From NCBI GenBank assembly GCA_028711705.1, contig JAQTRS010000003.1, positions 109,966 through 173,965 on the forward strand: a stretch of DNA of 64,000 nucleotides. Reading direction: 5' to 3'. The DNA is from Candidatus Moraniibacteriota bacterium (lineage in GTDB: Bacteria; Patescibacteriota; Minisyncoccia; Moranbacterales; UBA1568). Of this stretch, positions 31,786 through 51,040 are shown piece after piece (position 1 is the stretch's first letter; each line of letters begins with the position of its first letter). Position numbers and translations under genes: made by a program. The notes below the pieces were generated by a model, which saw nothing but the letters and a program-made list of their open reading frames with translations, did not search any database and had not been told where the DNA came from.

Positions 31786-31807
31786 CTATATGACAAGGAG
31801 ATTGAAA

Positions 31808-32829: not shown

Positions 32830-32879
32830 TCGTGTGCGAAGAGCGGGGTATTTTGTGACTTATTATAACAAACGAAGGT

Positions 32880-33254: not shown

Positions 33255-33337
33255 GCAATTGCCTTAATTTTCATTGTTATGGAAAGCTTGAGTAACACAG
33301 GGTTTATAAATTTCCAGAAAAACGATGAAGATATGGT

Positions 33338-34711
33338 ATGATATCGTATATGGGCATATTTTCAAAACAAAAAAACATCATCTTTATTTCCCATTCACGC
33401 TTGCGTGCAGTGCAGGTGAATCTGGGGCGTGCCAATGCAGGGAAGGTGATCGAGGATATCGTATGGAACAAAGAGACATTGCCATCGATACTTTCGGTTA
33501 TCCGTACAAAAATTGGGAGCGATATCCAGCTCGCACTAAGCGAAGATTTGGTATACGTCGTAAGTTTCGCTTTGAAAAACGCGACGAAATACACCCGTCT
33601 GACGATAAAGCAGGAGGCTTCGAGCTTTATCCCTGAGAATTTAGACGAGGTGCCTTGGGATTTCCGCAGTATCGCTGCTATCGTCGGCGATAAGCGTATC
33701 GGTGTCAGCAAGGGGGTGCAGGTAGCAGCGGTTTCGAAAGTTTTCCTGCACGACATCGCGCCGGCATTCGTATCGGCCGGTTTCGTGGTGGAGGCGATGG
33801 AGGCTGAATCATGCGCTTTAGCAAGACTGATGCATGATCAGGCCAGTCCGATACTTATCGTGCATACGGACCATGATAGAACCCTGCTAGTTATTCTTGA
33901 GCGCGGCGTCGTAATGGCAACACAAAATTTTGCGGAATCCATACATTCGGATGATATCGAGAGGTTCATAAGTTCGGCGCAGAAACATTTTTCATTGCGT
34001 ATCGCATCGGTTATTTTTTCCGAAGAATCGACGAAATCGCTCGGCGATGTGAGGGATTCGCTTCAGAGCAAGGGCTTTTCGGTGCAAGAGGCTTCTTTTG
34101 ACCCTATTCTCGGTCTTGCTTTGAAAAAAGATATCAGAGGAAATGATGCAGACGTATTGAATGTCAATCTGCTACCTCAAGAGAAACGAAACTTTTTGAG
34201 CCTCATACGGAGCCCTCGTGAAAAGCGATTACTGATCATTTTTTTTATTGTTTTTATCCTCGGATCGGTTGCAGTATCTGGGATGTTTATGTTTAATCGT
34301 TCAGTAAAGGCACCGATAAAGCAGGAGTCTGTCATAGCGGATATTCCTATTGAGGTTGCGAAACCCTCTGTGCCGCAAGATAATGCAGACGGTCTTGTGC
34401 CTCCATCCGGATCTGGTGCTGTCGCTGATTATGCGATCAGCATTCTTAATGGAAGTGGCATCCGGGGTGAGGCAGCCGGAGTAGAGAAGTTGGTTCGTGC
34501 GGAAGGCGCGACAAAGGTCCGTATCGGCAATGCAGATAACAATTCGTATACCAAAACCAAGATACGGGCAAAAAAAACCGTGCCTCCTTCGATGTCTCAA
34601 TCGATTGTGAAGGTATTGTCTTCGCGTTACGTTGTGGAAGATGTCGAAATATTGGATGATGGTGCGGAAGATGATATTATGGTAATAGTTGGCAGTCAAA
34701 AAAACGAATAA
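33338..34711 (+). CDS. PilM-PilN fusion protein with C-terminal LytR_C-like domain
   Basis: About 280 aa of cytoplasmic PilM-like region, then the PilN hallmark LNVNLLPQEKR immediately before a TM helix (LLIIFFIVFILGSVAVSGMF). The C-terminal segment (ADYAISILNGSGIRGEAAGVEKLV...VKVLSSRY) resembles the LytR_C domain. Confidence 0.55.
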   Translation: MISYMGIFSKQKNIIFISHSRLRAVQVNLGRANAGKVIEDIVWNKETLPSILSVIRTKIGSDIQLALSEDLVYVVSFALKNATKYTRLTIKQEASSFIPENLDEVPWDFRSIAAIVGDKRIGVSKGVQVAAVSKVFLHDIAPAFVSAGFVVEAMEAESCALARLMHDQASPILIVHTDHDRTLLVILERGVVMATQNFAESIHSDDIERFISSAQKHFSLRIASVIFSEESTKSLGDVRDSLQSKGFSVQEASFDPILGLALKKDIRGNDADVLNVNLLPQEKRNFLSLIRSPREKRLLIIFFIVFILGSVAVSGMFMFNRSVKAPIKQESVIADIPIEVAKPSVPQDNADGLVPPSGSGAVADYAISILNGSGIRGEAAGVEKLVRAEGATKVRIGNADNNSYTKTKIRAKKTVPPSMSQSIVKVLSSRYVVEDVEILDDGAEDDIMVIVGSQKNE

Positions 34712-34724
34712 AAGGATATATTTT

Positions 34725-35201
34725 ATGAAGCAGTCTGGTTTTCGGACAGAAAAAGGATTCACTCTTATCGAACTTCTTTTGGTGATAGGGATTATTTCAG
34801 TTTTGGCAGTCGTTGTGTTCGTTGCGCTTGATCCCGCGAAACGATTTGCGGATGCGCGTGATGCGAGGCGAAATTCCGATGTCCAAAATATCCTCAGCGC
34901 TATCCATCAATATATTATCGACAACAAAGGCGCTTTGCCTTCCGGACTCGGTACGACTGAAAATCAGATCGGCACGGCTACTTCCGGATGCGGCCTCGTG
35001 GCGGGCGAGTGCAATGTTGGTGCCACCGCCTGTCTCGATATGTCCGCTAATTTGGCGAAGTATCTCAAGTCGATACCGACCGATCCGCAGAACGGTACGG
35101 CTGGTACGACGCATTATTCCGTTCAAACAGATGTTAATGGCATCGTGACCGTACGCGCATGTGATACGGAAGGAACGACTGCTATCTCGATTTCGCGCTG
35201 A
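34725..35201 (+). CDS. type IV pilin (major pilin candidate)
   Basis: Class III signal KG-FTLIELLLVIGIISVLAVVVFVALDPAKRF. C-terminal Cys pair (CGLVAGECNVGATAC) for a disulfide loop. Paralog of the 48002 gene. Confidence 0.75.
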   Translation: MKQSGFRTEKGFTLIELLLVIGIISVLAVVVFVALDPAKRFADARDARRNSDVQNILSAIHQYIIDNKGALPSGLGTTENQIGTATSGCGLVAGECNVGATACLDMSANLAKYLKSIPTDPQNGTAGTTHYSVQTDVNGIVTVRACDTEGTTAISISR

Positions 35202-35291
35202 TCACAGGTACAAACTTTTAATGTCACCTCTGGCTGTGTGTTTTGGCGAGGGAGAGTCTTGTGCGCCGATTGCTAAATTCTCGATCGATAC

Positions 35292-36365
35292 ATGACCATG
35301 CATCAATCCATACGAACCTCTATTCAGAAACTCTTTTCCTTGCAGGTCGGTTTTTTTCTTATTCTCGCTTTGCCTGCGAGTACGAATTATAAGTTGAAGG
35401 ATTTCGGTATCGGAAGCGGCGGTTCCTCGACAGCTGCTTCCGCGAATTATAAGGCGGATGTAATAAGCGGCGAAACGGATAATGGCAACCTTACCGGAAC
35501 GACGTATAATTTAGGAACCGGACTTGCGTTTACCAATCAGGCCGATGTTCCGGCGGCGCCGACATTCACCAACCCGAGTAACTATTACAATAAGCTCAAG
35601 ATCGTTCTTGACGCGTCGAGCAATGCGACGGATACGAAATTCGCGATCGCTATCAGCCCCGATGATTTCGTGACGACGTACTATGTGCAAAGCGACGCCG
35701 CTATCGGTATGACATTGGGATCCGAGGACTATCAAACCTCTACCGGCTGGGGGAGTGCATCCGGGACGATCATCATCGGTTTGACGCCGAATACGACCTA
35801 TAAAGCGAAAGTAAAGGCGATGCAGGGGGATTTCACGGAAACGGGCTATGGGCCGATCGCCACCGCATCCACGATCAATCCGACTATGACCTTCGATATC
35901 GACGTATCGGCAACGGATACGGATACCAGTCCGCCATTCACGATCAATCTCGGTGACTTAATAGCCAGCACTATCACGGACGGGCCCCAGAAAATATGGG
36001 TTGATTTCTCGACCAACGGGGAGCTTGGCGGACGGGTGTATGTGGTCGCGCAAAATGCGGGGTTGCAAAGTGTTGCGGCGAGCTACAAAATCAATGCGGT
36101 TACAGGAAATCTCTCTGCCTTACCGCAAGGATTCGGTGCGCAGGGATCCTCGGTGGCTAATGGATTATCGATTGCTACGCTGTATGATCTTTCGGGGGAT
36201 AATGTCGGTGTGACAGATACCAACATCCGTGAAATATTTTCTTCAACGTCTCCGACGACAGGAGGACGAGGGTCATTTCTTCTCAAGGCGAAGTCGGCAG
36301 CCACTACGCCATCAGCGAGCGATTATGCGGAAACACTTACTGTTATCGCATCCGCAAGTTTCTGA
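35292..36365 (+). CDS. secreted Thr/Ser-rich surface protein (paralog A1)
   Basis: Signal peptide and a beta-rich T/S/G/N-rich body. C-terminal motif SDYAETLTVIASASF, shared with the 36469 protein (TDYTDTLTVVAAGRF). Confidence 0.55.
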   Translation: MTMHQSIRTSIQKLFSLQVGFFLILALPASTNYKLKDFGIGSGGSSTAASANYKADVISGETDNGNLTGTTYNLGTGLAFTNQADVPAAPTFTNPSNYYNKLKIVLDASSNATDTKFAIAISPDDFVTTYYVQSDAAIGMTLGSEDYQTSTGWGSASGTIIIGLTPNTTYKAKVKAMQGDFTETGYGPIATASTINPTMTFDIDVSATDTDTSPPFTINLGDLIASTITDGPQKIWVDFSTNGELGGRVYVVAQNAGLQSVAASYKINAVTGNLSALPQGFGAQGSSVANGLSIATLYDLSGDNVGVTDTNIREIFSSTSPTTGGRGSFLLKAKSAATTPSASDYAETLTVIASASF

Positions 36366-36468
36366 TTCATGTTCTTTGACAGTATTTTCGTGCATGTTAT
36401 ACTGTAATAAATTAGGTATAAAAATAAAATAAAACAATATGTACCGTGAGATATCCTTAGGAAATGGC

Positions 36469-37497
36469 ATGCGCAAAATCTCTTTCAGCAGCATAGTTGT
36501 TTTCGTTTTGGTTTTGATTCTACCGATACTTTTTTCCGAAGAAGCTCATGCTGCCGGTTTGCAGCAGGCCTATGTCCGCCTCGATCGTTTGGCGGATGGT
36601 GCTACGACCGGGGGGATGGTGTGCGCCAAGTCCGCTACCGCTTCGGTAGAAACGACCGTCAAAGTTACGTTCCCGTCCGGTTTCGCCACGGTGGATACTC
36701 CGGCCAATTGGACGGTGACTACGACTAATATCCCTGCGGATGCGACAGCGTGGATCGGTATCGGTACCGCTTCGGCGGCTTCTGGTCAGGATGTCACGTT
36801 CCCGAGCGGCGATATGGTAGTGGGCACGCTGTATTGCTTCAACTTTACGGGGACAAGCACGCTGACAAACGCCTCTGCTGCGAATAATCTGGTAGGTACG
36901 ATCACGACGCAACTCGCCGGCCCGACTGCTATCGATAGTTCGAGTTATGCACTGTCTATCGTTACGAATGATCAAATCGTCGTATCTGCATCCGTACCTG
37001 CGACATTCTCTTTCGCTTTGAGTGGAAATACTGATACTATGGGTACGTTGTCCACTACGACCGCTTCTTCTACTGGTAAGACCGTGACCATCGGAACTAA
37101 CGCCGCAAGCGGATGGGTGGCCTGGGTTAAAAGCGCCAACGCCGCATTGAATTCTGCCTCGACCGGTGCAACTATCGCTACGGCCGGAACGGTGAATAAT
37201 GCTCCATCGGATCTGGCTGCGCTTACCGGGTATGTGTTGGACGTTGACGTCACGACCGATAGTGCCACTGGTACGGGTTCTGTAACTCAGGCTTCTGATT
37301 ACGGTGCGGAATATAATGGAACCAATACGACTTCCGGAGGTACGCTTTCGACAACCTTCCAGCCGATCGCCGCTTCGAGCGGAACGACCGATGGGGATGT
37401 GCTGACCCTCATAGAACGTGCGAAGATCAGCGCTGTCCAGGGCGCTGCCACCGACTATACGGATACCTTGACCGTGGTGGCTGCCGGACGCTTTTAG
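36469..37497 (+). CDS. secreted Thr/Ser-rich surface protein (paralog A2)
   Basis: Signal peptide MRKISFSSIVVFVLVLILPILFSEEAHA. Same composition and C-terminal motif as the 35292 protein. Confidence 0.55.
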   Translation: MRKISFSSIVVFVLVLILPILFSEEAHAAGLQQAYVRLDRLADGATTGGMVCAKSATASVETTVKVTFPSGFATVDTPANWTVTTTNIPADATAWIGIGTASAASGQDVTFPSGDMVVGTLYCFNFTGTSTLTNASAANNLVGTITTQLAGPTAIDSSSYALSIVTNDQIVVSASVPATFSFALSGNTDTMGTLSTTTASSTGKTVTIGTNAASGWVAWVKSANAALNSASTGATIATAGTVNNAPSDLAALTGYVLDVDVTTDSATGTGSVTQASDYGAEYNGTNTTSGGTLSTTFQPIAASSGTTDGDVLTLIERAKISAVQGAATDYTDTLTVVAAGRF

Positions 37498-37568
37498 GCT
37501 CAAGATATGGTATATATAAAAGGATTCCGGTTCCGTCGGAATCCTTTTTACTTTGAGAGAATGTTCGG

Positions 37569-38651
37569 TTGTTGTATACTGGTGATATTATGAATCATAT
37601 GCGCTTCCAGAATAACAAAGCACTCTTTTTAGGTCTTGTTTTTGTTTTCATCCTCATCCTTTTTCCGTTACCGTCCTCTGCTGCCGATGGCAGTCTTCAT
37701 CTCGTCACATCGCCGTTGCCTATCAACCTGGTCACGACACCAGGCTCTTCCGTCACGACCCCTATCAAGATCAAAAACGGAGGCACACAAACAGAACAGC
37801 TCAAGATTACCTTGATGAAATTCAAGGCCTATGAATCCAATGGGCAACCGCAATTGATGGATCCGGAACCGACGGACGATTTCCTTACATGGGCTTCTTT
37901 TTCAGAAGATACGTTCACTGCTGCTCCCGATGAATGGAAAACTATCACCGCAACCTTCAATGTCCCGCAGGATGCGGCATTCGGATACTATTATGCTATT
38001 GTTTTTTCGCGTGCTCATGATGAAATTCCGACCGATTCGAAACAGACGGCCGTTGTGGGAGGCACCGCCGTTTTAGTGCTCCTCGAGGCCCGTGTCGATG
38101 ATGCGAAACGCTCCGTCGAGGTGACTGAATTCAGCACGGACAAGCAGATCTATGAATTCCTCCCGGCAACATTTACTGTCAAGCTCAAAAATACCGGCAG
38201 CGTTCATGTCGCGCCAAGAGGCAATATCTTCATCAACAAAGGAGATGAACATGACGTCGCGCTGCTTGAGATCAATGCCAATAAGGGGAATATCTTGCCC
38301 AATTCGACGAGAGATTTTAAGGAACCCTGGAAGGATGCTTTTCCGGTGTATGTGGAAAAAAAGCAGGATGGGAAAGTGGTCCTGGATGAAGCCGGCAACC
38401 AGGTGATGGAGCTTGTATGGGACTTCGGACAGGCTTCCAAACTCAGGTGGGGAAAGTATACCGCCAAGATGCTCCTCATTTACGATGATGGTCACCGGGA
38501 TGTCCCGATCGAAGGAGAGGTCTCCTTTTGGGTGGTGCCGTGGAGGTTGATCGGTGTCGGATTGTTCATCCTTGTTTTCGTGTTGATCGGTTTGAAGAAT
38601 ACACTGCAGAATATGTGGAAAAACGTGCACGGCTGGTTTGAGAAAAAGTAG
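37569..38651 (+). CDS. cell-surface protein, signal peptide + C-terminal TM anchor (paralog B1; DUF916/DUF3324-like architecture)
   Basis: Signal peptide, an ectodomain of about 300 aa with HVAPRGNIFI, and a C-terminal TM (LIGVGLFILVFVLIGL) with a short basic tail. Confidence 0.5.
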   Translation: MLYTGDIMNHMRFQNNKALFLGLVFVFILILFPLPSSAADGSLHLVTSPLPINLVTTPGSSVTTPIKIKNGGTQTEQLKITLMKFKAYESNGQPQLMDPEPTDDFLTWASFSEDTFTAAPDEWKTITATFNVPQDAAFGYYYAIVFSRAHDEIPTDSKQTAVVGGTAVLVLLEARVDDAKRSVEVTEFSTDKQIYEFLPATFTVKLKNTGSVHVAPRGNIFINKGDEHDVALLEINANKGNILPNSTRDFKEPWKDAFPVYVEKKQDGKVVLDEAGNQVMELVWDFGQASKLRWGKYTAKMLLIYDDGHRDVPIEGEVSFWVVPWRLIGVGLFILVFVLIGLKNTLQNMWKNVHGWFEKK

Positions 38652-38678
38652 GGTATAACAGTTGTATACTCAAATAGA

Positions 38679-39653
38679 ATGATGCGAATACGAATAATGG
38701 CAGGGAGGATATTTTTTGTGGCAAGCACGCTGTCTTGCTTCTTTGCGAGCCCGTTTTCCGCATGGGCTGATGAGGATCAAAAGGGGATATCGGTGAGCCC
38801 GATGTTTCAGGAAATATCGCTGGGCGAAGGACAATCGAGTCAGACATTTTCTATCGAAGCGTTCAATACGACCGATACCCTGATCACGCTGCGGTTGTCG
38901 GTGCTTGATTTCGGATCATTGGACGAGTCTGGCGGCGTGGCTTTTTTGGGTGCCGAACAGAACTTCGAAAAGCAGTACAGTATCGCTTCCTGGATACGGC
39001 TCGATCGCGACGCTCTGGTGCTCGGACCGGGCGAATCGCAGTCTGTTCAGGTAACCTTTGAAAACCGGGACTCGCTTTCTCCTGGCGGGCATTATGGCGC
39101 CGTCGTATTCAAGGTGGAGAATAGCGGTTCAGATACGGTGGATGAGAATGGCAAATCCAAGATCGCTATCAGCCAATCGTTTTCATCGCTCGTCTTCGCG
39201 AAGAAAGTCGGAGGGGTGCTCTATGATCTCAATATGCGCAGCGTTGAGAGAGAGACGAACTGGTTTCATCTGCCAGCAAGTATCACGACGCGCTTCCAGA
39301 ACAAGGGCAATGTGCACGTGGTACCACGAGGAACAATCGTTGTGACGGATCCTTTGGGAAAGGTTGTACAGAAGGGGGTTATCAATCCGGAGTCGGCCAT
39401 CATTTTGCCCGAAACATTCCGTTCGTACGTGACGCGACCGGTACTTTTAGGAGCCGCCCTTGTTCCGGGATACTATACGCTCACGACACAGTACCGCTAT
39501 GACGGGCGAGATGATGTCATTACGCATAGCTTTCGTTTTACGTATGTGCCGTTTTTTGAAATAGTCCCGATGATCGTGCTGCTCGGAGGTTTCGTGTGGT
39601 GGCGAAAGAAGAAAGTGGGCGCTGAAAAATCGAAAGTGAACCGTAGCGCATAG
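38679..39653 (+). CDS. cell-surface protein paralog B2
   Basis: Same architecture as the 37569 protein: HVVPRGTIVV, C-terminal TM IVPMIVLLGGFVWW and a KKK tail. Confidence 0.5.
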   Translation: MMRIRIMAGRIFFVASTLSCFFASPFSAWADEDQKGISVSPMFQEISLGEGQSSQTFSIEAFNTTDTLITLRLSVLDFGSLDESGGVAFLGAEQNFEKQYSIASWIRLDRDALVLGPGESQSVQVTFENRDSLSPGGHYGAVVFKVENSGSDTVDENGKSKIAISQSFSSLVFAKKVGGVLYDLNMRSVERETNWFHLPASITTRFQNKGNVHVVPRGTIVVTDPLGKVVQKGVINPESAIILPETFRSYVTRPVLLGAALVPGYYTLTTQYRYDGRDDVITHSFRFTYVPFFEIVPMIVLLGGFVWWRKKKVGAEKSKVNRSA

Positions 39654-39656
39654 CCT

Positions 39657-40286
39657 ATGAATGAAGAAGATATTCCTGAAGCAAAGCCGAAAAATATGGT
39701 GAAAAAGTTAGTATTCCTTTTGATGTGCGCGGCCATGTTTGCCGGCGTATGGATGGTGACGCGGATGCAACAACCTTCTCAGGGAGTCATCAGGAAGAGT
39801 CCGACACAAGTGAGTAGCGTGACAGCTCCGCCTCAGGAGAAGATCCGCCTCGAGGGAGAGTATCTTTCATTCGCGCATCTTTCTTCGTATACGCCGGTGG
39901 CGAAGCTTGAAGAATCAGAAGCGAAAGACGGAGAAGTTTCTGTCAAAAAACCGGGAGCATTCTTGCAATCCGATTTCCTTATCGCTTATACGGCCGCATC
40001 GTCCAAAAAAATAGCCGTTTCCGTAGAGTCCTTGCCGAGCAGCAATCTTGAGGATAATGCTTCGTTCAAATTTCGTATTTCGAGCCCAAAACTGTATACT
40101 CAAAGTATGGCTGATATCGGCAAAGAAAAAGTGATTCTCTTTGTGCGGGATGGGGATACGCGCGAGCAGTCGGTGTTTCTGAGACATAATGCTTTGGTGG
40201 TGCCGGTCGTTCTTTCCTCATCAAATACGAGTTTGGAATCTATGCGAGAGGAACTTCTGGCGATTGCCAACAGTGTCGAATGGTAA
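39657..40286 (+). CDS. membrane-anchored hypothetical protein
   Basis: N-terminal TM (LVFLLMCAAMFAGVWMV), then a soluble domain of about 170 aa. No recognised motif. Confidence 0.45.
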   Translation: MNEEDIPEAKPKNMVKKLVFLLMCAAMFAGVWMVTRMQQPSQGVIRKSPTQVSSVTAPPQEKIRLEGEYLSFAHLSSYTPVAKLEESEAKDGEVSVKKPGAFLQSDFLIAYTAASSKKIAVSVESLPSSNLEDNASFKFRISSPKLYTQSMADIGKEKVILFVRDGDTREQSVFLRHNALVVPVVLSSSNTSLESMREELLAIANSVEW

Positions 40287-40314
40287 TAGAGGCATTAAGT
40301 CAGTGTGCGAACGT

Positions 40315-41790
40315 ATGAAAAATAAAAAACAATTACAAAGAGCGAGGAAGTGGATGCGTCTGCACGTCGTTTTGACAGCGATCGCATTCGGGGTGTATTT
40401 TTTGGCGGCTTTTTTGTACAGTCCCCATTTTTTTCTCGTTGATCTGAAGGATAAAATATATGCCTTGGCGGATACAATCGGTGTGACCGCACGGGTTTTG
40501 GATGCGCCGGTTAAGCCGGTTGTGAGCGTTACGACGACATGCGATACCATTAAGGGAGAACTCTCCGTTACGGCAGATTGGGCGGATGATGAGAATTCAT
40601 ATACGTATGATATGTTTCGCGGTGGGAGTTTGCTTATGACCAACCTTACAAACTCATCATACAAGGATACCAATGTCACTGTTGGGACGAATTATGAGTA
40701 TTTCGTGGTAGCGAATGGGCCGATGGGTCCGGGAACGGCCACGTCCGATACCGTATCCATCACGACGCCTGCGGAGTGTATAAGGGTATTACCGAGTCCT
40801 TTGGTAGCGGCGACATCTATCGGTACTATGGATATCGCCGGACAATCCGGTGGGGCGCAGACGCTTGATCAGACCCCGTTGTTCTCCGGTACGACCAATA
40901 TTCCATTTGCTATTATCGATATCGTGGTTCATAGTAATGAAACTGTAGTGTTGCAGACAATCGCAAATGCTAATGGGTATTGGGAAATAGAGTCCCCTGT
41001 ACAGCTATCTTTCGGAGAACATACGATATATATCACTGCGACCGATCCTTCCGATAGTACGCGCACAGCAACGTATAATATCGTATTTTATGTGAATCAG
41101 GTGACAGCAGTGTCTGATAGCGATAGCGGGAATACGAGTAGTCATAGGAAGGCATCGCGATCACGGACGGTTTCGACCGCGTCTTCTTTATCTACGAAAC
41201 AATCATCGATACATACGATACCGACTTCGCCGGTCACGCCAGTTCTCATTCCTTTCGATTTCATTCTGCGTACTGAGGGCGACAATAGAACTTTTTTTCA
41301 GGGAAAAACGATCAGTGCGGAAGTAGCCATTACTCGGGTTGATGCGAATAATGCTTCTGCAGGAGGAACGATTCGTTATGCGCTTACGGATGGGGATGGC
41401 AATGCGGTCATATCTGTCGAAAAATCGATAGAAGGCTTGAGGGCAGGCAAAGTGATACGGGAAAGCATTCCGCTTCCTGCTGACTTGAAACAGGGTGAGT
41501 ATGTGTTGCTTGTTGAGTTTTCGAGTGGGAAATTCACTATCGTGAGGACGATGGATATTTCCGTTATGGAGCTGCCTTTGTCTGATCTTGGTGGCGGAGT
41601 TGTCATTACGTATCCGCAATTCGTGCGCAACATCGGATGGATCGCCTTCCTTTCACTCACATTATTGCTAGGATGGTTTTTGCTTTGGATCCGCGAATAT
41701 TGGTTGTACGCGCATGCAGCGCAGCATGTTGCTGAGAGGAATTTGGCTGGAAAAGGCCTTATAACGAAGAGAAAGGGGGTGTCTTCATAA
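40315..41790 (+). CDS. membrane protein with FN3/Ig-like extracellular domains
   Basis: N-terminal TM. FN3-like segment (YTYDMFRGGSLLMTNLTNSSYKDTNVTVGTNYEYFVVANG). C-terminal TM IGWIAFLSLTLLLGWFLLWI. ATG 40315 is preferred over the overlapping upstream start. Confidence 0.5.
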   Translation: MKNKKQLQRARKWMRLHVVLTAIAFGVYFLAAFLYSPHFFLVDLKDKIYALADTIGVTARVLDAPVKPVVSVTTTCDTIKGELSVTADWADDENSYTYDMFRGGSLLMTNLTNSSYKDTNVTVGTNYEYFVVANGPMGPGTATSDTVSITTPAECIRVLPSPLVAATSIGTMDIAGQSGGAQTLDQTPLFSGTTNIPFAIIDIVVHSNETVVLQTIANANGYWEIESPVQLSFGEHTIYITATDPSDSTRTATYNIVFYVNQVTAVSDSDSGNTSSHRKASRSRTVSTASSLSTKQSSIHTIPTSPVTPVLIPFDFILRTEGDNRTFFQGKTISAEVAITRVDANNASAGGTIRYALTDGDGNAVISVEKSIEGLRAGKVIRESIPLPADLKQGEYVLLVEFSSGKFTIVRTMDISVMELPLSDLGGGVVITYPQFVRNIGWIAFLSLTLLLGWFLLWIREYWLYAHAAQHVAERNLAGKGLITKRKGVSS

Positions 41791-41791
41791 T

Positions 41792-42109
41792 ATGGAAACT
41801 TTTTTAGTGGTAGCCGAGGCGATGACGATATTGGCGGCGATGATGTCGATAGTGTATACGGTTGGTATCGTATGGCGGGTGGAAAAAGAACTTGATGTGT
41901 CATATAAATTTTTCGCATTCGCTATCGTGTTTTTTTTGATTGCCGAACTTCTGAACGTGTATTATGTTGGACATGGTGTAAGCTTTGCTGTGGCTGAAAA
42001 ATTGAGCAAGGTCGTGTTTTCTGCATTGTTTTTGGTCGGGACCCTCTATATGCGCGATATTATCCGAAAACTCGACGGTGAAAAGCGGAAACAAAAGGGT
42101 AGGAAATAG
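41792..42109 (+). CDS. small membrane protein (hypothetical)
   Basis: 105 aa with three hydrophobic segments and a basic tail. No motif recognised. Confidence 0.35.
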   Translation: METFLVVAEAMTILAAMMSIVYTVGIVWRVEKELDVSYKFFAFAIVFFLIAELLNVYYVGHGVSFAVAEKLSKVVFSALFLVGTLYMRDIIRKLDGEKRKQKGRK

Positions 42110-42195
42110 CCACAAAAAGTACGTGTATCAAAAATCCGGCAATCGACCGGATTTTTTCATTTTTTATTTGTTGCGCCGATGTATTTTATGGTATT

Positions 42196-45100
42196 ATGAA
42201 GGAGGAAAATCATACAAAAATGAAGAACACATATCGATTCCGGTTTCTGGCATTTCTCGCTATCTTTTTAGTGGTTGGTTTTTTTGTTTCTACTCAGGAG
42301 TATTCGTTTGCGGCGACCGGTACGAACAAGAAAATAAATTTTCAAGGAAAGGTGGTCAATAGCAACGGAACTAATGTTGCTAACGGATCATACGGCTTTA
42401 TTTTCAGCATTTATACCGTTTCAAGCGGTGGCGCGAATGTGTGGACGGAAAGCAAATCCCTGACCGTGACCGACGGTATTTTCCAGACTGACTTAGGGGA
42501 TGTTACTACGCTTCCAGGATCTATCGACTTCAATACGGACAACATTTACCTTGGTATCAATTTCAACGGTGATGGCGAGATGTCGCCACGTGTGCAATTC
42601 GATGCCGTTCCTCAGGCATTCAACGCTCAGAAAGTAGCAGGACTTACAGTAACCGACACGACGGGCACACTGACGATTCCGAATGGTAAAACCATTTCTT
42701 TCGCGGATACTTTTTCAACTTCCGGTGCTTTCGCAACGACGCTTACTGCAACCGGAACAACCACTGTGACGCTTCCGACCACCGGGACACTTGCGACGTT
42801 ATCAGGCAGTGAGATTTTGAACAACAAAACCATCGGAAGCGCAGGCCTTATTTTTTCGGGAGCGGCTACGGATATCACGACTACTTCTGGAGAATCATTG
42901 GTGATTGTTGCGGCCGGTGCAGGAACGGTAGATATTCAGGACGCCACTACCGTTGACTCGCTTACCGCGGATACGGGGGGTATTTCTATTGCCGCCGGTC
43001 AATCGTATACGGGTTCGGGCGCGGTGACGCTTTCATCAGGAGGTGCTGCCGGTCTGACGATCGATTCTGCATCAGATGTGCTTACAGTGGCCACGGGAGA
43101 CTATCTTGCACTGAGTCATTCCGGCGTTGCGAGCGCCGCGGCAGGATATATCTGGTATGATTCGGGGGATAATAAATTCAAGATCAACGAAAACGGTACG
43201 ACCAAGACGTTATGTAATCTTACAGACGGTGGCTGCGGATCGGGTGGCGCGAGCGATCTGCAGACAACGTATGGTAATGATGCTGATGGATCGAATGCTA
43301 CGATTTCACTGACGGCTGCCGATGATGGTTTGGTCTTCACTAATCCGACCTCCGGTGGTACGGATGCGAGCTCTTTCCTTGCTTATTTCAACCAGCAGAA
43401 TACGACGGCCGCTGTATCGGCAGTCGATATTACTCAGGCTTCCAATGCTTCCAATGCGGTCAATATTACAGCCAATGCTATCGATGGCGAGATAGGACTT
43501 GATATCACGGCTAACGGTCTGACGTCGGGTAAGGGTATAGATGTCTCGTCATCATCGACTGCATTTACAGGCAATCTTTCCAATATATCTTTGACAGGAT
43601 CCAGTGCTGCTAATACCGGTAATGTGCTTGCGGTGTCAAATACTGGTACGGCGAATGCTAACACCTCGTTTTTTATCAATCATCAGGCAACTGGAACTGG
43701 CAATCTCGCTATGCGCGTGGATGATCAATCAAGTGATGCGACGCCGTTCGTTATCGATGGCAATGGCAATGTCGGCATCCAAACGAGTGCGCCTACAGAT
43801 GCTCTTCAGGTGGGAAGTGCGACGAATCGTGCCAATATGACAGCTTATGGTGATATTACGGCGGAAGGATATGATGTCCAACGCAGTCTGGCCGGCATCA
43901 TTGATATCTTTGTGTATGATACGACGCGTGATGCGGATGGCGGGGAATGGCGCAACTCGATCATTTCACAGCAGATGTCTTGGGCGACGGAAACCAAAGA
44001 TGATGGTATCGGCGATGCTTGCGATATCGCAGCTGATGATCGCTGCGGCAAGTCGATTTTTCCTCGTAAGGCGATTATAGCTACTACAGCGAGCGGCCTG
44101 TATATTTTTGATGGTGCGGACAATTCGCTATGGATGAAGTTTACCCAAGCAGGTACGTATGCTTTGGGTGCAGATACGAATAATAACCCGACAGGAGTGG
44201 GTGCGCAGAATGGTGTCATAGTAGTCGGAACCAATGGCACATCGGCTACCGGTATGTACGCTTTCGATTTTAAGCAGGATGCGATGTATCGTTATGATGC
44301 AACGAATCGCGTGCAGGGTGATAAAAATATCGGCAATCGAAATTCGACGGTGTCCTACGCGACCAATGCGAATACAAATTTTGCTCTTGTGAACTCGGTT
44401 GTTAATGATGTTTCGATCGCACTCATCACTTCATCGACTGAAGGTATGATCAACACGTTGACGCTACCATTAGATAGCGCAACAAGTCCGATGCGAGGCG
44501 TGACGCTTATTGCTGCAGCGACGGATACGGGGGTTTCCGTCGTCAATACTGCCAATCAAAGAGTGTTTAGTTATTCGGAAACGACAAACGATGACTATAA
44601 TCAGGTTGTCATCACAAGCCGTGGAAGGATGTATGCGACCAATGAGACCCAGCAGCAATTAGAAGAATGGAGAAATATCGATAGGGATGTGGCATCGGAA
44701 CTCAACGGAAACCCGGATCGATTCTATGATCAGACTGTCGGACGATCACCTATTACAACAGGAACGGCACCGACTATTTCCACTTCGCCCGGAACCCTTG
44801 CCGTTATCGAACGAAACTCAGCTGCTCGCGAATCAGCTGCTACAACCCTTCTTGAGACTGGTGATATCGTTTTTGTCGGTACGGATCAGGGTTTGGCCGA
44901 AGTGCATACTTCGGGAGGAAGCCTTGTTGGCGCCGCATGGTCCAAAATAACAACTTCGACGGTAGCGACTCCGTATATGGTCGGCGCTGCACGCTCAGTC
45001 TATCTTTTTGAGGAGGCTGCCGGTTCGACGGTCGCAGCAAGTTCTATCGGTGCGGCCGGTACGACCAATAACCCACTTAGATCAGCAGTGACAGGAACTG

Positions 45101-47970
45101 CCCCGACATTTGGTGGCGACGGTATTCGGGGAGTGAGTGTCAATTTCAATAACAATTCTTATTTATGTTCAGACGCGAACTCGGATGGTACGTGTGATGC
45201 GGATGCTGACTTCAATGCTGGTACGGTGAGTTTCACCGTTTCTTTATGGTTCAAGCATTCGACTACGGCAGCAGCCGATACGTTGTTCGAACGATGTTAT
45301 ACTCCCGTGGCGGCAACAGCGGCCGTCGGGTGTATATATGCCGGAATGCATACGACCGGGCAGATCCGTTTCGCTATCGATAGCCTTACGACGTGGACGT
45401 ATAACACTACCTATGATGACACTATTCTTTCGACTGCAACCTATAATGATAACCAATGGCATCATGCTGTGTTCACTAATACTGACACGGATATCTGTAT
45501 GTATATCGATGGGAAGCAGGCAGTAGCGTGCGACAGCACTATTGCAGCTACCGCGACAATGGATGCTTCGCAGGTATTGACGGTCGGAGGGTCGTGTGCT
45601 GGCGCGAACTGTGTGACGGGTGCGAACTTTTGGGATGGATCGATTGATGAGCTCGTGTGGAGTTCGAACGGTGGTACGACAAATGATGGATTAGCAGCGC
45701 AAAGCGCCAACAAACTTTATTTGGATGGTCGGGCCCACATGATACGGCCTTCTGATACGGTGGTTGATGCCACAACTTTTTCATCGACTACTATAGGGGA
45801 TTCCGCAGAAAATTATGTTCCAGGGTCGTTCGTGGGACTGGTTGTGGAGTTGAACGGTGGAACCGGCGCCGGACAAACGAGAACGATTATTTCTAACGAT
45901 GCGACTACCTTTACTGTGTATCCGGCATTCACGACTGTGCCCGATGCTACGACTGACTATCAGGTAAGTCCCGCGAAGCTGTATGGAGTGAACGGGGTTA
46001 CGGCTATTTCAGCGGATATGCCGACCAATCTCAACAAGATCCGCAAGGTCTATGTGGGAACGAGTAATGGATCGGATGGCGGAGGCATCAGTGTCTTTAC
46101 CAATGCCGGCGCTGGTTCAATTAAGACGGATGTGATTCATTCGGATGCCGGTTATCCAGCGGATGATTTCGGTTCGACGTGGTCAGGAACAGATGCTGAC
46201 GATATTAGCGCTATCGCTTCCTATTCCGATACGGTAGCCTTCGGTTCTGGTGCATTTTTGCGAGCGAAACGAAATGAAGTCAGTTTGAAGCAGCTTCAGT
46301 TAGATACTATAGGAGGGCTTGAAGATATTCGTCAAGAATTGGTCTCCAAACAGCTCTTCGGATCGACTCAGGACGTACTTGGTTTGGGTCAGGGAGCCGA
46401 CCTTGCAGAGCGTTATTATTCTGATGAATCTCTGATGGCGGGCACTATCATTTCTATAGATCCATCGCTTGATAATGGCGTTAAAAAGTCGACAGGGGCG
46501 TATCAGAAAGATATGCTCGGCGTTGTTGCTACCAAGCCAGGAATCACTTTGGGATCGGTACAAGATAACGCTTATCCTGTGGCTCTTGTTGGACGAGTGC
46601 CTGTTCTTGTGACGAATGAATCGGGGCAGATCTATGCAGGGGATAGGATAACTTCTTCTTCGGTTCCAGGCTATGGTATGCTTGCTATCAAAGCGGGGAG
46701 AGTGGCCGGAACCGTACTCGAGGATGCTTCGGGTTGGGATACCTGTCCTGCCGGAGTGATCACCGATGGACGAAATATCAAGTGCACAAGCGTGATGGTT
46801 TTTGTCAATCTTACGGATTATAACGGTCGATCGATCGATGTCGCGATGAAAGAGCACGCTCAGCAGCAAGCTCTTACCGGTGGCAATATCGATGGTTTGC
46901 AAGTGGACGGGTCAGTGGATACCGCGGTTCTTCCTGGCGACGAGGCTAATACCAATGGCGTCATCACTATTCTCAATACAGCTAGCAATGATCAGGATTT
47001 TTCGAGGCAGCAGCAAATACTATCCTTTTTGAATGATCTTAAAGAGGAACAAGCGAAATTTTCGCAGCAATCATCGGAGATATTTACCGATCAATTGTAT
47101 GCTGCGGACGGCGTCGTTACCCCGCAGTTGGTTGCAGATCTTATCATCGCCAAGCATATCAAGGCGGATTCGATAGAAGGTTTGGAGGTGTTTACGGATA
47201 AAATCGGCAGTCTTTCCGATCGCATCACGAATCAGGACAAGGACGTGACGACGCAGCAGCTTACGGCCGGAGATGCTGAAATCGGTTCATTGGCACTCGA
47301 AAGCGCGAAGGTGTCGATGAATATGGATGTCGCCGGCAAGCTTAAGGTGGGAGGCTTGATTGTCAGTGACAGTGCCACATTCAAGAATGATACTTTGTTC
47401 AATAAACTCGTTTCATTTATCGGAAAGGTTGTCTTCAAGAGCGATGTCGCTTTTGAAAAAACACCGACCTTTGGTAAGGATACGGCCGGATTCGCCAAGA
47501 TTGCCAAGGGTGCCGATCGGGTGGAAATCGTGTTTGGAACCGTGTATGAGAGGACGCCGATCGTGCAGGCGATGATGGTTTTCGATGATGAAAAGGCACT
47601 CGATACCGATGCGTCCGATGCGAATTCGGGCAATGATTCCGCGCCAGCCGTTTCCGGAGCGTCTTCTTCCAAAGAAAAAGATACGATCCAAAGACAATTG
47701 CTTGCCAAAAACTATTCGTACTTCGTGGTCAATCGAACTAAAAAGGGCTTCACCATCATTCTCAATAAACCGGCCGATGAAGACCTTGATTTTTCTTGGG
47801 TAGCTATCGCCGTGGCTGACGCGCAGACATTTGAAAGCAAAAAACCTGAACCTGTCGCAGACCCATCGGTTTCGATTCCTGCGATCACTCCTACGGTTTC
47901 GGAAAAAACTAGTATTCCTTTGATCACAGCGCCTACGACATCTCCTACGCCTATCGCGCCGACTTTGTAA
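42196..47970 (+). CDS. giant secreted protein (1924 aa) with LamG/concanavalin-A-like lectin domain and Thr/Gly-rich beta-repeat regions
   Basis: Signal peptide (FLAFLAIFLVVGFFVSTQEYSFAATG). Long T/G/A/S-rich repeats. LamG-like block (VSLWFKHSTT...NQWHHAVFT...DGSIDELVWSS). The likely start is ATG 42220 (MKNTYRF) after the AGGAGG. Confidence 0.75.
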   Translation: MKEENHTKMKNTYRFRFLAFLAIFLVVGFFVSTQEYSFAATGTNKKINFQGKVVNSNGTNVANGSYGFIFSIYTVSSGGANVWTESKSLTVTDGIFQTDLGDVTTLPGSIDFNTDNIYLGINFNGDGEMSPRVQFDAVPQAFNAQKVAGLTVTDTTGTLTIPNGKTISFADTFSTSGAFATTLTATGTTTVTLPTTGTLATLSGSEILNNKTIGSAGLIFSGAATDITTTSGESLVIVAAGAGTVDIQDATTVDSLTADTGGISIAAGQSYTGSGAVTLSSGGAAGLTIDSASDVLTVATGDYLALSHSGVASAAAGYIWYDSGDNKFKINENGTTKTLCNLTDGGCGSGGASDLQTTYGNDADGSNATISLTAADDGLVFTNPTSGGTDASSFLAYFNQQNTTAAVSAVDITQASNASNAVNITANAIDGEIGLDITANGLTSGKGIDVSSSSTAFTGNLSNISLTGSSAANTGNVLAVSNTGTANANTSFFINHQATGTGNLAMRVDDQSSDATPFVIDGNGNVGIQTSAPTDALQVGSATNRANMTAYGDITAEGYDVQRSLAGIIDIFVYDTTRDADGGEWRNSIISQQMSWATETKDDGIGDACDIAADDRCGKSIFPRKAIIATTASGLYIFDGADNSLWMKFTQAGTYALGADTNNNPTGVGAQNGVIVVGTNGTSATGMYAFDFKQDAMYRYDATNRVQGDKNIGNRNSTVSYATNANTNFALVNSVVNDVSIALITSSTEGMINTLTLPLDSATSPMRGVTLIAAATDTGVSVVNTANQRVFSYSETTNDDYNQVVITSRGRMYATNETQQQLEEWRNIDRDVASELNGNPDRFYDQTVGRSPITTGTAPTISTSPGTLAVIERNSAARESAATTLLETGDIVFVGTDQGLAEVHTSGGSLVGAAWSKITTSTVATPYMVGAARSVYLFEEAAGSTVAASSIGAAGTTNNPLRSAVTGTAPTFGGDGIRGVSVNFNNNSYLCSDANSDGTCDADADFNAGTVSFTVSLWFKHSTTAAADTLFERCYTPVAATAAVGCIYAGMHTTGQIRFAIDSLTTWTYNTTYDDTILSTATYNDNQWHHAVFTNTDTDICMYIDGKQAVACDSTIAATATMDASQVLTVGGSCAGANCVTGANFWDGSIDELVWSSNGGTTNDGLAAQSANKLYLDGRAHMIRPSDTVVDATTFSSTTIGDSAENYVPGSFVGLVVELNGGTGAGQTRTIISNDATTFTVYPAFTTVPDATTDYQVSPAKLYGVNGVTAISADMPTNLNKIRKVYVGTSNGSDGGGISVFTNAGAGSIKTDVIHSDAGYPADDFGSTWSGTDADDISAIASYSDTVAFGSGAFLRAKRNEVSLKQLQLDTIGGLEDIRQELVSKQLFGSTQDVLGLGQGADLAERYYSDESLMAGTIISIDPSLDNGVKKSTGAYQKDMLGVVATKPGITLGSVQDNAYPVALVGRVPVLVTNESGQIYAGDRITSSSVPGYGMLAIKAGRVAGTVLEDASGWDTCPAGVITDGRNIKCTSVMVFVNLTDYNGRSIDVAMKEHAQQQALTGGNIDGLQVDGSVDTAVLPGDEANTNGVITILNTASNDQDFSRQQQILSFLNDLKEEQAKFSQQSSEIFTDQLYAADGVVTPQLVADLIIAKHIKADSIEGLEVFTDKIGSLSDRITNQDKDVTTQQLTAGDAEIGSLALESAKVSMNMDVAGKLKVGGLIVSDSATFKNDTLFNKLVSFIGKVVFKSDVAFEKTPTFGKDTAGFAKIAKGADRVEIVFGTVYERTPIVQAMMVFDDEKALDTDASDANSGNDSAPAVSGASSSKEKDTIQRQLLAKNYSYFVVNRTKKGFTIILNKPADEDLDFSWVAIAVADAQTFESKKPEPVADPSVSIPAITPTVSEKTSIPLITAPTTSPTPIAPTL

Positions 47971-48001
47971 ATAAAATGTTTTGGAGGTATACTATAGACA
48001 T

Positions 48002-48478
48002 ATGAATAAACGTTTGCGTCATACATCACACGGATTCACACTGATTGAACTTTTACTTGTTATTGGAATTATCGCCGTACTTGCGGTAGTGGTTTTCGTG
48101 GCGCTTGATCCTGCGAAACGATTTGTGGATGCTCGAAATTCGAGACGGGTTTCCGATGCGCAGTTCATTCTCACCGCGGTACGCCAGTACGTGATCGACA
48201 ATGGTAGTACACTACCGACTGGTCTTGATACAATCGAGAAACAGCTCGGAACAGGCGTCTCAGGGTGTAGTCTTACGTACGGAGTCTGCAGCGCCAATAC
48301 GAATTATTGCCTTGATATGTCAAGCGATTTGGCGAAATATCTCAAGTCTTTGCCATTCGATCCGAAAGAGGGAACGTCCGTGAAAACTCACTATACGATT
48401 CAAGTCGATAGCAACAATATTATCACGGTACGCGCCTGCGATGCTGAAAACAATGAGGAAATAGTCGTTTCAGGTTAA
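48002..48478 (+). CDS. type IV pilin paralog
   Basis: HG-FTLIELLLVIGIIAVLAVVVFVALDPAKRFVDARNSRR is nearly identical to the N-terminus of the 34725 pilin. Conserved Cys pair. RBS ggagg upstream. Confidence 0.75.
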   Translation: MNKRLRHTSHGFTLIELLLVIGIIAVLAVVVFVALDPAKRFVDARNSRRVSDAQFILTAVRQYVIDNGSTLPTGLDTIEKQLGTGVSGCSLTYGVCSANTNYCLDMSSDLAKYLKSLPFDPKEGTSVKTHYTIQVDSNNIITVRACDAENNEEIVVSG

Positions 48479-48583
48479 AGGGTTTTTCTGTTGTCTGTAA
48501 AAAATAAGGCTCATAAACGAGTTTTTCAAAAAATTCTTTTTGGTAGCGAGATTGTTAATGAATGTGAGAGAATCCACAGTTGT

Positions 48584-49576
48584 ATGAGTTTCCGAGTTTT
48601 TTCTTTCAGCATTGCGGTTTTTACAACAGGAGTCGTGTGCGGTGTTTTTGGATATCGGTTTGTACGAGAGGGCACCTTTGTGGATATTCCCGAGGATACT
48701 TCTCGGCAGATTCGGCAAAATAGCCAGTATGTGTACACCAATCCCTTACTTGAATGCGAAGTAGCGCAGGGTGTTATTGATGTTCAAAAAGAAAATTTTC
48801 AGAAGGATCTGGAGAGTTTTGTTTATGATTTGAAGCAGCGGCGCACATTGACGAATGAGTCGATATATTTTCGTGATCTCAATAACGGACCGGCGTTCGG
48901 TGTCGATGCGAGAGAGGAATTTTTTCCTGCGTCATTGCTTAAGGTTCCGGTTATGATGGCTTATTATCGCTGGGCGGAGTCGGAACCCGGCCTTTTGGGT
49001 ACGGAGATTCTGTATGAGGCGCCGAAGGATTTCGGTATGACGCCGACTATTATCCCTCGTGAGCAGCTGACGGTAGGGCAGAGCTATACCGTGGAGGAAC
49101 TTATCCGTAGGATGATCGTTTATTCGGATAATCAAGCATTAAGACTTCTTTCAAGCCGGTTACCTTTGGAAAAGCTTAGAGACTTGTTTAAGATAGTCGG
49201 AGCTAAAGATGAAGTACTGGTTGATGTGAATGCTCAATTGACCGTCAAAGAATATGCTGGATTTTTCCGTATCCTTTTCAATAGTTCGTATCTTTCGCAT
49301 GATAACTCTGAGAAAGCGTTGAGGCTGCTTGCCATGACGGATTATGATGTTGCCCTTAAAGCAGGTGTCCCCCGTGAGGTGATGGTTTCGCATAAATTCG
49401 GAGAGGCAGGGACAGGTGATACGGAACGGCAATTGCACGATTGCGGTATCGTGTATTTCCCAGGGCATCCGTATCTCGCTTGTATTATGACGCGTGGCAA
49501 GGATATGGATGCTTTACGTCAGGCTATCGAGGACACATCACGTTTTATCTATGATAAAATCGATGGGCCATATTGA
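48584..49576 (+). CDS. serine hydrolase, class A beta-lactamase-like fold
   Basis: N-terminal TM. SxxK (ASLLK), SDN (YSDNQA) and a KxG-like (HKFGEAG) motif. The start is uncertain (ORF track gives a TTG at 48491). Confidence 0.6.
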   Translation: MSFRVFSFSIAVFTTGVVCGVFGYRFVREGTFVDIPEDTSRQIRQNSQYVYTNPLLECEVAQGVIDVQKENFQKDLESFVYDLKQRRTLTNESIYFRDLNNGPAFGVDAREEFFPASLLKVPVMMAYYRWAESEPGLLGTEILYEAPKDFGMTPTIIPREQLTVGQSYTVEELIRRMIVYSDNQALRLLSSRLPLEKLRDLFKIVGAKDEVLVDVNAQLTVKEYAGFFRILFNSSYLSHDNSEKALRLLAMTDYDVALKAGVPREVMVSHKFGEAGTGDTERQLHDCGIVYFPGHPYLACIMTRGKDMDALRQAIEDTSRFIYDKIDGPY

Positions 49577-49657
49577 TATCACCTTGTATTATGTGCACAT
49601 ATTTTGTATACTACAGATGATTTACCGGGTTAAAAAAACAAACGTAATTTTACGATT

Positions 49658-50963: not shown

Positions 50964-50968
50964 ATGTG

Positions 50969-51040
50969 AGCGGGTGACCGGAATCGAACCGGCGTCCTCA
51001 GCTTGGAAGGCTGATATAATAGCCATTATACGACACCCGC
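50969..51040 (-). tRNA. tRNA-Gly (anticodon TCC)
   Basis: The reverse complement has acceptor GCGGGTG/CACCCGC, anticodon stem TCAGC/GCTGA with loop CTTCCAA (anticodon TCC), and T-arm GCCGG TTCGATT CCGGT. 72 nt. Confidence 0.8.

Follow-up and report, generated by a model that had tools for sequence, protein, structure and literature searches.

Two paralogous type IV major pilin genes that enclose a run of eight other genes raise the question of whether the enclosed genes were placed there by recombination between the pilin copies, serve the type IV pilus as accessories, or form a system of their own. We addressed this question in a 64,000-nt stretch of DNA from Candidatus Moraniibacteriota bacterium (GCA_028711705.1, contig JAQTRS010000003.1, positions 109,966-173,965 of the forward strand), referred to hereafter as the window. 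The genome was assembled from a metagenome, and two proteins of the window are 100% identical to the NCBI entries PHT88_03440 and PHT88_03445, on a contig of 176,858 bp. NCBI taxonomy places Moranbacteria in the Patescibacteria and Parcubacteria groups. Bacteria of the Candidate Phyla Radiation (CPR), to which this lineage belongs, are thought to rely on surface filaments for finding and holding their hosts. Our analysis indicates that the enclosed genes are most likely the Moranbacteria version of the CPR Pam-type pilus module together with a fibre adhesin, standing beside a type IV locus that has two alternative pilins.

The coordinates of the features are collected in Table 1. The interior comprises A1 and A2 (pilin-like proteins), C1 and C2 (chaperone-like proteins), X209, R533, tm105 and a giant protein of 1924 aa. 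A reading made earlier from the sequence alone (the sequence-only reading) had described these eight genes as encoding signal-peptide or membrane-anchored proteins, and it was right on this point: a signal-like or hydrophobic membrane segment is present at the N-terminus of all eight, as expected of Sec-exported proteins, and three also have a C-terminal membrane helix. Its description of the interior as a module of surface filaments and adhesins also agrees with our results. Its proposals on how the module came to lie between the pilins, and on which pilus it serves, were not supported.

Table 1. Positions of the genes and transcription-signal candidates at the locus, numbered from the first nucleotide of the window
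Feature	Position	Strand	Remarks
Histidine kinase	26340-27977		Precedes type IV operon
Response regulator	28041-28442		Precedes type IV operon
Type IV pilus assembly operon	28460-34711	+	Upstream of pilin 1
PilB-type ATPase	28460-30175	+	Pfam T2SSE, 421 bits
PilC-type platform	30287-31345	+	Pfam T2SSF, 179 bits
Four small pilin-like or minor pilin genes	31357-31785, 31790-32284, 32281-32829, 32880-33254	+	N_methyl on two
457-aa membrane protein	33338-34711	+	LytR_C domain (Pfam)
Pilin 1 (type IV major pilin)	34725-35201	+	Leader MKQSGFRTEK, then GFTLIE; 4 Cys
A1	35292-36365	+	Secreted 357-aa pilin-like protein; FN3-like middle, then linker and C-terminal domain as in A2
Promoter-like site	36376-36403	+	TTGACA, 16 nt, TG-TATACT; 11/12 matches; in A1-A2 gap; best site in 20-kb scan; consensus match only
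A2	36439-37497	+	Secreted 352-aa pilin-like protein; beta-sandwich 43-174, linker strand DQIVVSASVPATFSF 178-192, C-terminal beta domain ending DYTDTLTVVAAGRF
Weak terminator-like hairpin	37529-37543	+	After A2; consensus match only
C1	37569-38651	+	Membrane-anchored, chaperone-like; signal peptide, two beta-sandwich domains, C-terminal membrane helix 325-359
C2	38679-39653	+	Paralogous chaperone-like protein; C-terminal membrane helix 287-308
X209	39657-40286	+	N-terminally anchored 209-aa accessory protein; tblastn matches in 15 loci
R533	40315-41790 (longest open reading frame from 40189)	+	Ig-like/FN3-like, membrane segment at each end; Pfam Big_13, 35 bits; weak FN3-like match
tm105	41792-42109	+	105-aa membrane protein
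Strong terminator-like hairpin	42130-42156	+	10-bp stem and T run, between tm105 and giant; consensus match only
Giant	42196-47970	+	1924-aa secreted fibre-like protein; Laminin_G_3 lectin-like domain 1003-1155 (Pfam, 46 bits)
Pilin 2 (type IV major pilin)	48002-48478	+	Intact prepilin motif; 4 Cys

Pilin-like and chaperone-like proteins of the module

The Pam pilus was described in Ca. Mycosynbacter amalyticus (Troman et al., bioRxiv 10.64898/2026.03.03.709456), where the two-domain pilins PamA and PamB are joined by a donated, conserved linker strand. According to that preprint, PamA, PamB and PamE are pilins, with the linker and the C-terminal binding site the most conserved parts of PamA and PamB; PamC and PamD are chaperones of the PapD/FimC type in which a C-terminal membrane helix is retained; PamR, which resembles RbmA, is a membrane-anchored terminator, and PamT is the tip subunit. 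Pam pili have no trans-envelope machine, and their gene neighbourhood includes a tail-fibre-like gene and ATP synthase genes. The Saccharimonadia proteins were seen as filaments by cryo-EM, and the preprint stresses Saccharimonadia and Microgenomatia.

A2 is predicted to be built like such a subunit: a beta-sandwich at the N-terminus is joined by a single linker strand to an Ig-like C-terminal domain that is incomplete. A1 shares this architecture by prediction. In the AlphaFold2 model of A2 (predicted local distance difference test, pLDDT, 75), strands occupy residues 43-174 and 209-350 and are separated by a low-confidence linker (180-190) that is disordered in the monomer. Hydrophobic residues alternate along the linker. 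The 54 A2 homologs compared, drawn from two CPR classes, have their invariant residues concentrated at 178-204, 220-239 and 328-352. Conservation is highest at the C-terminal strand, at 213-234 and in the linker, so that the A2 family is most conserved in the linker and the C-terminal binding site, as described for the Pam pilins. A2 is up to 86% identical in other species and is our candidate for the major subunit. The NCBI annotation starts the protein 10 codons later (P0121, 342 aa). A reading of the family's C-terminal domain as a WxL or SCPU domain was rejected, as Pfam gave it no support in any of the 54 members.

The sequence-only reading had noted two paralog pairs in the interior. The C1/C2 pair proved to be paralogous in full, and A1 and A2 in the C-terminal half only. 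The linker and C-terminal domain of A1 (residues 190-357, about 160 aa) are homologous to the A2 family (hhalign 99%, E 3.5e-18; BLAST of A1 against A2 gives E 1e-4 over 45 aa), and the N-terminal half of A1 differs from that of A2. A1 is kept in 63 of the related loci described below. Residues 26-83 of A1 match model positions 24-82 of NCBIfam NF058579, PamT (E 4e-6, 26 bits). We regard A1 as a candidate minor or tip-proximal subunit of the Pam type. Searches of PDB chain sequences with A1, A2, the giant and profiles of the A2 and C1 families returned nothing useful. Neither Pfam nor NCBIfam found a prepilin motif in any interior protein.

C1 and C2 are related to each other by BLAST (E 6e-12) and by profile comparison (hhalign 99.7%, E 7.5e-27). 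The AlphaFold2 model of C1 (pLDDT 79) consists of a signal helix, two beta-sandwiches and a C-terminal membrane helix; the C-terminal hydrophobic segments fall at 318-347 in C1 and at 287-308 in C2. Foldseek matched the model to PDB entries at E values of 3e-9 to 1e-7, among them the WxL-interacting proteins (WxLIP) 9i25_C and 9i1y, CfaA (6k73_B and 4ncd) and CsuC (6fqa and 5d6h), with the Enterococcus faecium WxLIP 9i25_C best (E 2.9e-9). The pair of PapD/FimC-fold chaperones with a C-terminal transmembrane helix that characterises the Pam system is thus found here, for C1 by its model and for C2 as its paralog. The search for C1 gave 1113 homologs, and 5563 cluster representatives at E<=1e-3.

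The resemblance of C1 to CfaA and CsuC extends to the chaperone-usher pili (Pap/Fim, CFA/I and archaic Csu), in which the chaperone fold is alike; the C-terminus of the A2-type subunit also resembles the final beta-strand motif, which suggests donor-strand complementation and exchange. The differences are considerable. No interior protein is usher-like, there is no outer membrane, and the chaperones are tethered to the membrane. On the subunit side there is an additional N-terminal domain, and strand donation would fall to an internal linker, not to an N-terminal extension. No sequence-level similarity to chaperone-usher proteins was found.

From these features we infer a mechanism in which A1 and A2, exported by Sec with an incomplete Ig-like C-terminal domain, would form polymers through donor-strand exchange. 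From the cytoplasmic membrane, to which they are tethered, C1 and C2 would cap the subunits and hand them over there without an usher; X209 and R533/tm105 would act as membrane-anchored accessory or anchoring factors, and the giant would be a fibre-like adhesin with a lectin-like domain. Pfam and NCBIfam identified no usher, sortase or ATPase encoded inside the module. The region would thus carry two different filament systems side by side. The sequence-only reading had offered, as an alternative to cargo, a tip module of the type IV pilus; against this, the interior has pilin-like subunits and PapD-fold chaperones of its own, a different principle of assembly.

In sum of likeness, the module shares with the Pam system Sec signals on all components, two-domain subunits with a conserved linker strand and C-terminal domain, two paralogous PapD-fold chaperones with a C-terminal membrane helix, the lack of usher and sortase, a tail-fibre-like giant gene nearby and a CPR host. 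It differs from Pam in that no PamR and no full PamT are detectable; instead there are R533, anchored at both ends, and tm105. X209 matched no named Pam component, and M. amalyticus has its Pam genes in another order. The window's module lies directly against a type IV pilus operon and a sensor-kinase cascade, and the host is a member of the Moranbacteria (Parcubacteria group).

Several observations weigh against assigning the module to the Pam type. The PamR model (NF058578) detected nothing among the interior proteins, and tblastn with a PamR-like protein was blank in the window and the Moranbacteria loci. The PamT match of A1 is partial and lies far under the cut-off of 240 bits. NCBIfam was blank for the pilin and chaperone homologs even in a Saccharimonadia locus. 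ATP synthase genes were not seen in a scan of all but a few of the window's open reading frames. In fold, C1 is as close to WxLIP, for which pilus building is not known, as to the chaperones of chaperone-usher systems. Finally, the link to the M. amalyticus Pam system is an indirect one, drawn from its published description and from syntenic homologs adjacent to PamR, and a search seeded with a PamR-like protein recovered no entry named as M. amalyticus.

Synteny of the module in Moranbacteria and Saccharimonadia

A genome scan with the C1 family yielded 79 related loci (numbered with the prefix L) in Moranbacteria and Saccharimonadia, in which the presence of the other module genes was read by tblastn. 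Both classes have the same order: A1, A2 (1-2 copies), C1 (1-2 copies), C2, X209 (in some loci) and the N-terminal part of the giant, with identities to the window of 41-86%. In the Saccharimonadia loci a PamR gene stands immediately before the module; the PamR copy in L068 scores 305.4 bits against the NF058578 cut-off of 300, and ten others score 228-297 bits. The same layout of PamR and then module occurs on two near-complete contigs of 1.09 Mb and 0.83 Mb (L081 and L082). The window's module is syntenic with these Saccharimonadia modules and 41-53% identical to them.

The copy number of module genes is fluid. Tandem C1-type genes plus C2 are present in many loci (L004, L007, L012, L013, L015-L017, L021, L023, L029, L032, L033, L039, L043, L046, L080 and others) and many have two A2-type genes; the window has one of each.

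What lies upstream of A1 varies much more. Immediately before A1, most Moranbacteria loci have the gene for a LytR_C protein, several that for a response regulator, some R533/tm105 and about nine a type IV pilin gene. Most loci have no pilin flanking the module. Four (L004, L007, L013 and L017) have the type IV operon and a single pilin upstream; in L017, the one of these with the furthest-reaching sequence, the series runs from response regulator through type IV operon, one pilin, module and giant to a beta-lactamase-like gene, with no second pilin. Two pilins stand in tandem upstream of the module in L046 and L021. The bracketing order was found only in the window and in L043.

The closest relative found, L080 (positions 1-2300 compared), has RNase Y and HU genes that are both 95% identical to those of the window. 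There an oxidoreductase gene is followed by A1, A2, two C1 genes, C2, X209, R533, tm105 and the giant. It does not have the 14.4-kb block at 20810-35201 of the window, which carries the CHASE4-PAS sensor, PAS kinase, aminotransferase, histidine kinase, response regulator, type IV operon and pilin 1. The intergenic DNA before A1 in L080 matches the left junction of this block in the window, and A1 sits where the window's sensor gene starts. The type IV/sensor block is the variable part of the locus and the module is the constant part; therefore the pilin bracket would be a lineage-specific gene order and not the scar of an insertion. A local move of one pilin copy or of the module may have contributed to it. 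On this evidence the module appears to be an old unit, kept vertically in Moranbacteria and Saccharimonadia, while the adjoining block would come and go.

Base composition was examined along the region. Bulk GC is flat, and there is no step in GC or in GC at third codon positions (GC3) at either pilin gene. Every gene between 28.4 and 50.5 kb (type IV to LytR-like) has a GC3 of 0.43-0.59, compared with 0.60-0.75 in the flanks; the many Thr, Ala and Gly residues of the surface proteins mask this in the bulk GC. Pam genes also have a lower GC3 than their housekeeping neighbours in several other genomes, by a rough count per open reading frame, and the low GC3 at 28-50 kb looks like an effect of gene class. 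A tRNA-Gly gene lies at 50968-51040, at the right edge of the low-GC3 stretch. No integrase or transposase was seen in the region, and a scan of the island borders for repeats, tRNA genes and GC shifts found no tRNA gene or other mobile-element signature.

Many module-bearing contigs (L004, L006-L010, L012-L015, L017 and others) are titled 'uncultured Bdellovibrionales', and their genes are 55-68% identical to those of the window; one further contig each is titled 'Gammaproteobacteria', 'Terrimonas' and 'Limnocylindria'. All four labels look wrong for these Patescibacteria-like contigs.

The two flanking type IV pilins

Both flanking genes encode type IV pilins, each with a leader that ends in Gly, Phe at +1, Glu at +5 and a hydrophobic N-terminal helix, and PilB and PilC are encoded nearby. 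The prepilin N-methylation motif PF07963 scores 25.9 and 30.1 bits in the two proteins (cut-off 21.2), and both exceed the curated cut-off of TIGR02532. Counted from GFTLIE, each mature protein has 148 aa. Over 163 aa they are 60% identical (E 2e-63), with Cys at equivalent positions (89/96/103/146 in one and 88/95/102/145 in the other). Identity is 90% in the first 40 mature residues and 54% in the remainder, which bears out the description in the sequence-only reading of two paralogs with a common N-terminus, the same Cys architecture and a divergent exposed part.

The same division is seen in other pairs of paralogs from one genome. In the window, L001 and L043 (pairs at 34755/48032, 5285/14590 and 3763/20119, respectively), the first 40 mature residues are 90-100% identical and the globular parts 46-60% identical, about as distant as between species. 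The orthology of pilins between genomes cannot be recovered from the globular part. Since the two pilin genes of the window differ at many synonymous sites, the shared N-terminal helix is best read as the product of selection for a common machine and filament core. Recent gene conversion had been considered as a source of the shared N-termini and was ruled out by the same synonymous differences.

Likeness at the N-terminus combined with divergent globular parts is the pattern expected of alternative major pilins. We propose that the type IV operon would use two of them, one encoded at its end and the other 13 kb downstream, whose N-terminal helices would stay alike because they enter the same assembly machine and the same filament core while the globular parts diverge. 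Type IV loci with multiple major pilins, such as those behind the two pilus types that the Pam preprint cites for Saccharibacteria, likewise have two paralogous pilins, alike in the N-terminal helix and divergent in the globular domains, beside PilB, PilC and minor pilins. The window differs from them in having one set of assembly genes and an unrelated pilus module that separates pilin 2 from the operon.

Alternative explanations

The fold matches of C1 allow a reading in which the interior encodes a WxL/WxLIP-like surface complex and not a pilus; C1 and C2 would hold their partners on the wall by beta-strand insertion, and A1 and A2 would be displayed without polymerising. We consider this unlikely. 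In its favour, apart from the leading position of the two WxLIP structures among the matches, 32 of the 50 C2-family members (homologs in L001-L078) match Pfam PF06030 WxLIP_PGBD (DUF916), all below its cut-off of 27.3 bits (best E 3e-5). In WxLIP of the WxL/WxLIP (DUF916-DUF3324) clusters of Firmicutes, as in C1 and C2, a signal peptide precedes two Ig-like domains and a C-terminal membrane helix; strand insertion into a partner is predicted for WxLIP (PMC10599100), and these clusters likewise pair small and large partner proteins with an anchored binder. However, A1 and A2 have no WxL domain in Pfam and no WxL chain among their fold matches, and WxL proteins are described as peptidoglycan-bound and not filamentous. 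The similarity to WxL clusters is under every curated threshold, and the chaperone profile gave no sequence-level match to WxLIP in the PDB. The syntenic homologs beside PamR in Saccharimonadia, where related proteins form cryo-EM filaments, also speak for a pilus. The two readings may be compatible if the systems are related: Pam-type chaperones look related to the WxL-interacting proteins of Firmicutes, a relation that is only a lead because the pilin-like proteins show no WxL domain. The Pam preprint (bioRxiv 10.64898/2026.03.03.709456) makes no mention of WxL.

The sequence-only reading had proposed that recombination put the eight genes between the pilin copies as cargo, or that they are tip and adhesin accessories of the type IV pilus, expressed with alternative pilins. 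We regard this as highly improbable. The pilin genes do form direct repeats, and the tandem pilins of L046 and L021 imply that a rearrangement separating such copies occurred somewhere; the position of pilin 2, 31 nt past the stop codon of the giant, is consistent with co-transcription. The repeat, which is the only long one across the region, is confined to the 5' halves of the two genes (179 nt at 71% identity, 13,277 nt apart), and with the high synonymous divergence of the pilins, the lack of mobility genes and the absence of a compositional boundary it argues against insertion. The module has the same order in 79 of 79 loci, with or without flanking pilins. A contiguous arrangement with a single pilin, which the sequence-only reading had itself named as evidence against insertion, is the one seen in L017, and in L080 the module is present without any type IV block. 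These two loci largely refute the proposal. The accessory version is further opposed by the interior proteins' own chaperones and their lack of prepilin motifs.

The absence from L080 of exactly the block described above, with shared intergenic sequence upstream, suggests another possibility, that the sensor/type IV block is the mobile part. It would have been inserted upstream of an ancestral Pam module or deleted in L080, and the supercluster at 28-50 kb would be a horizontally exchanged island bounded by tRNA-Gly, in keeping with the low GC3 over 28.4-50.5 kb. We think this very unlikely as well. In more distant Moranbacteria (L011, L015, L030, L042, L079, L004, L013, L017 and L046) the sensors, kinase and regulator stand directly before the module whether the type IV operon is there or not, and therefore loss in L080 is favoured; the GC3 difference looks like an effect of gene class, and there is no integrase.

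Accessory proteins and the giant fibre-like protein

X209 is kept with the module in both classes, and a reciprocal search with its counterpart at L076:5370-6029 matched the same position in Moranbacteria loci. R533 had been described from the sequence as an FN3 protein; it has an Ig-like Big_13 domain, and FN3 itself gives a weak match. R533 showed no significant similarity to the PamR model or to PamR-like proteins. The R533/tm105 pair is a candidate membrane anchor, possibly standing in for PamR. Its placement varies among loci (including L002, L023, L035, L039, L042 and L043): it may precede the module in either orientation, separate A2 from C1, or follow X209. In many loci it is absent within 10 kb.

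The giant, also noted in the sequence-only reading, is a real open reading frame. Homologs of its N-terminal part lie directly downstream of C2/X209 in nearly all loci; this part is kept across both classes and the remainder only in nearer relatives. Giants of 2971 aa (L082, from 18768 onward) and 4651 aa (L081, from 17941 onward) occupy the same position in Saccharimonadia and share only the N-terminal part with the window's protein. In L082 a gene for an IS1595-family transposase lies just upstream of PamR. A search of PHROGs with the giant, A1, A2, X209 and R533 matched no tail-fibre family; the one match, of R533, was to a family of unknown function.

The giant weakly matches Bdello_MAT_N (E 1e-3, 19 bits, cut-off 60). 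Like the mosaic adhesive trimer (MAT) fibres of Bdellovibrio (PMC10769870), it has a conserved N-terminal part, a more variable remainder and a lectin-like domain. It is much larger than MAT proteins, the match is sub-threshold, and trimerisation and host binding of the giant are predicted at most. We regard it as a candidate host-binding fibre.

Candidate transcription signals

Promoters and terminators were scored as consensus matches in a 20-kb scan. The best promoter-like site stands before A2 and terminator-like hairpins follow A2 and tm105 (Table 1), so the 'island' probably consists of several transcription units, which by these predicted signals would be A2 by itself, C1 to tm105, and the giant together with pilin 2. 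By the same signals A2 would be a highly expressed subunit. Given the short distance between them, pilin 2 may be read together with the giant. L043 has a pilin at the position of pilin 2.

Implications

Recognition of the Pam pilus dates only from 2026 and from a single cultured member of the Saccharimonadia. If our assignment is correct, Moranbacteria as a rule carry a version of it that has diverged but keeps its synteny and is highly conserved among them. Its anchoring components are not those of the published set, and a type IV operon and sensor cascade adjoin it in one subclade. For a lineage without a cultured member, the locus provides concrete candidates for the major subunit, the chaperones, the anchor and the fibre adhesin. 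It also carries a warning for annotation, in that 'hypothetical secreted proteins' between CPR pilin genes would be a second pilus system and not accessory cargo.

Two linked readings go further, and we offer them tentatively, as doubtful. One is that the Pam chaperones and WxLIP (DUF916/DUF3324) of Firmicutes are homologous, the possible evolutionary link flagged above. A single chaperone-assisted system of strand complementation, in bacteria without an outer membrane, would then have branched into WxL clusters and Pam pili, and either some 'WxL-type' clusters would build fibres or Pam chaperones would double as surface anchors. The other is that the Pam and type IV systems of Moranbacteria form a single, co-regulated host-capture apparatus. 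In one Moranbacteria subclade the Pam module, the giant fibre and the two-pilin type IV pilus would then be under a shared cascade of CHASE4/PAS kinase and response regulator, with pilin 2 co-transcribed with the fibre, and this arrangement could account for retraction or positioning, for which the Pam paper could find no source.

Neighbouring genes

In addition to the kinase and regulator listed in Table 1, an aminotransferase, a PAS kinase and a CHASE4-PAS sensor are encoded upstream of the type IV operon. The label 'PilM-like' was rejected for the 457-aa protein at the end of the operon, in which LytR_C is the sole domain found. Neither PilT nor a prepilin peptidase was seen in the window.

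Downstream of pilin 2, the interval 48491-50458 encodes a membrane-anchored protein of the Beta-lactamase2 family and an anchored protein of 266 aa. Homologs of both recur downstream of the giant in several loci, and the two may belong to the same envelope gene neighbourhood. Near the left end of the window, four open reading frames on the + strand (3675-4586, 5591-6100, 7243-7887 and 7924-8850) have a T4SS_pilin (TrbC/VirB2-like) Pfam domain; the window therefore has a third family of pilin-like genes.

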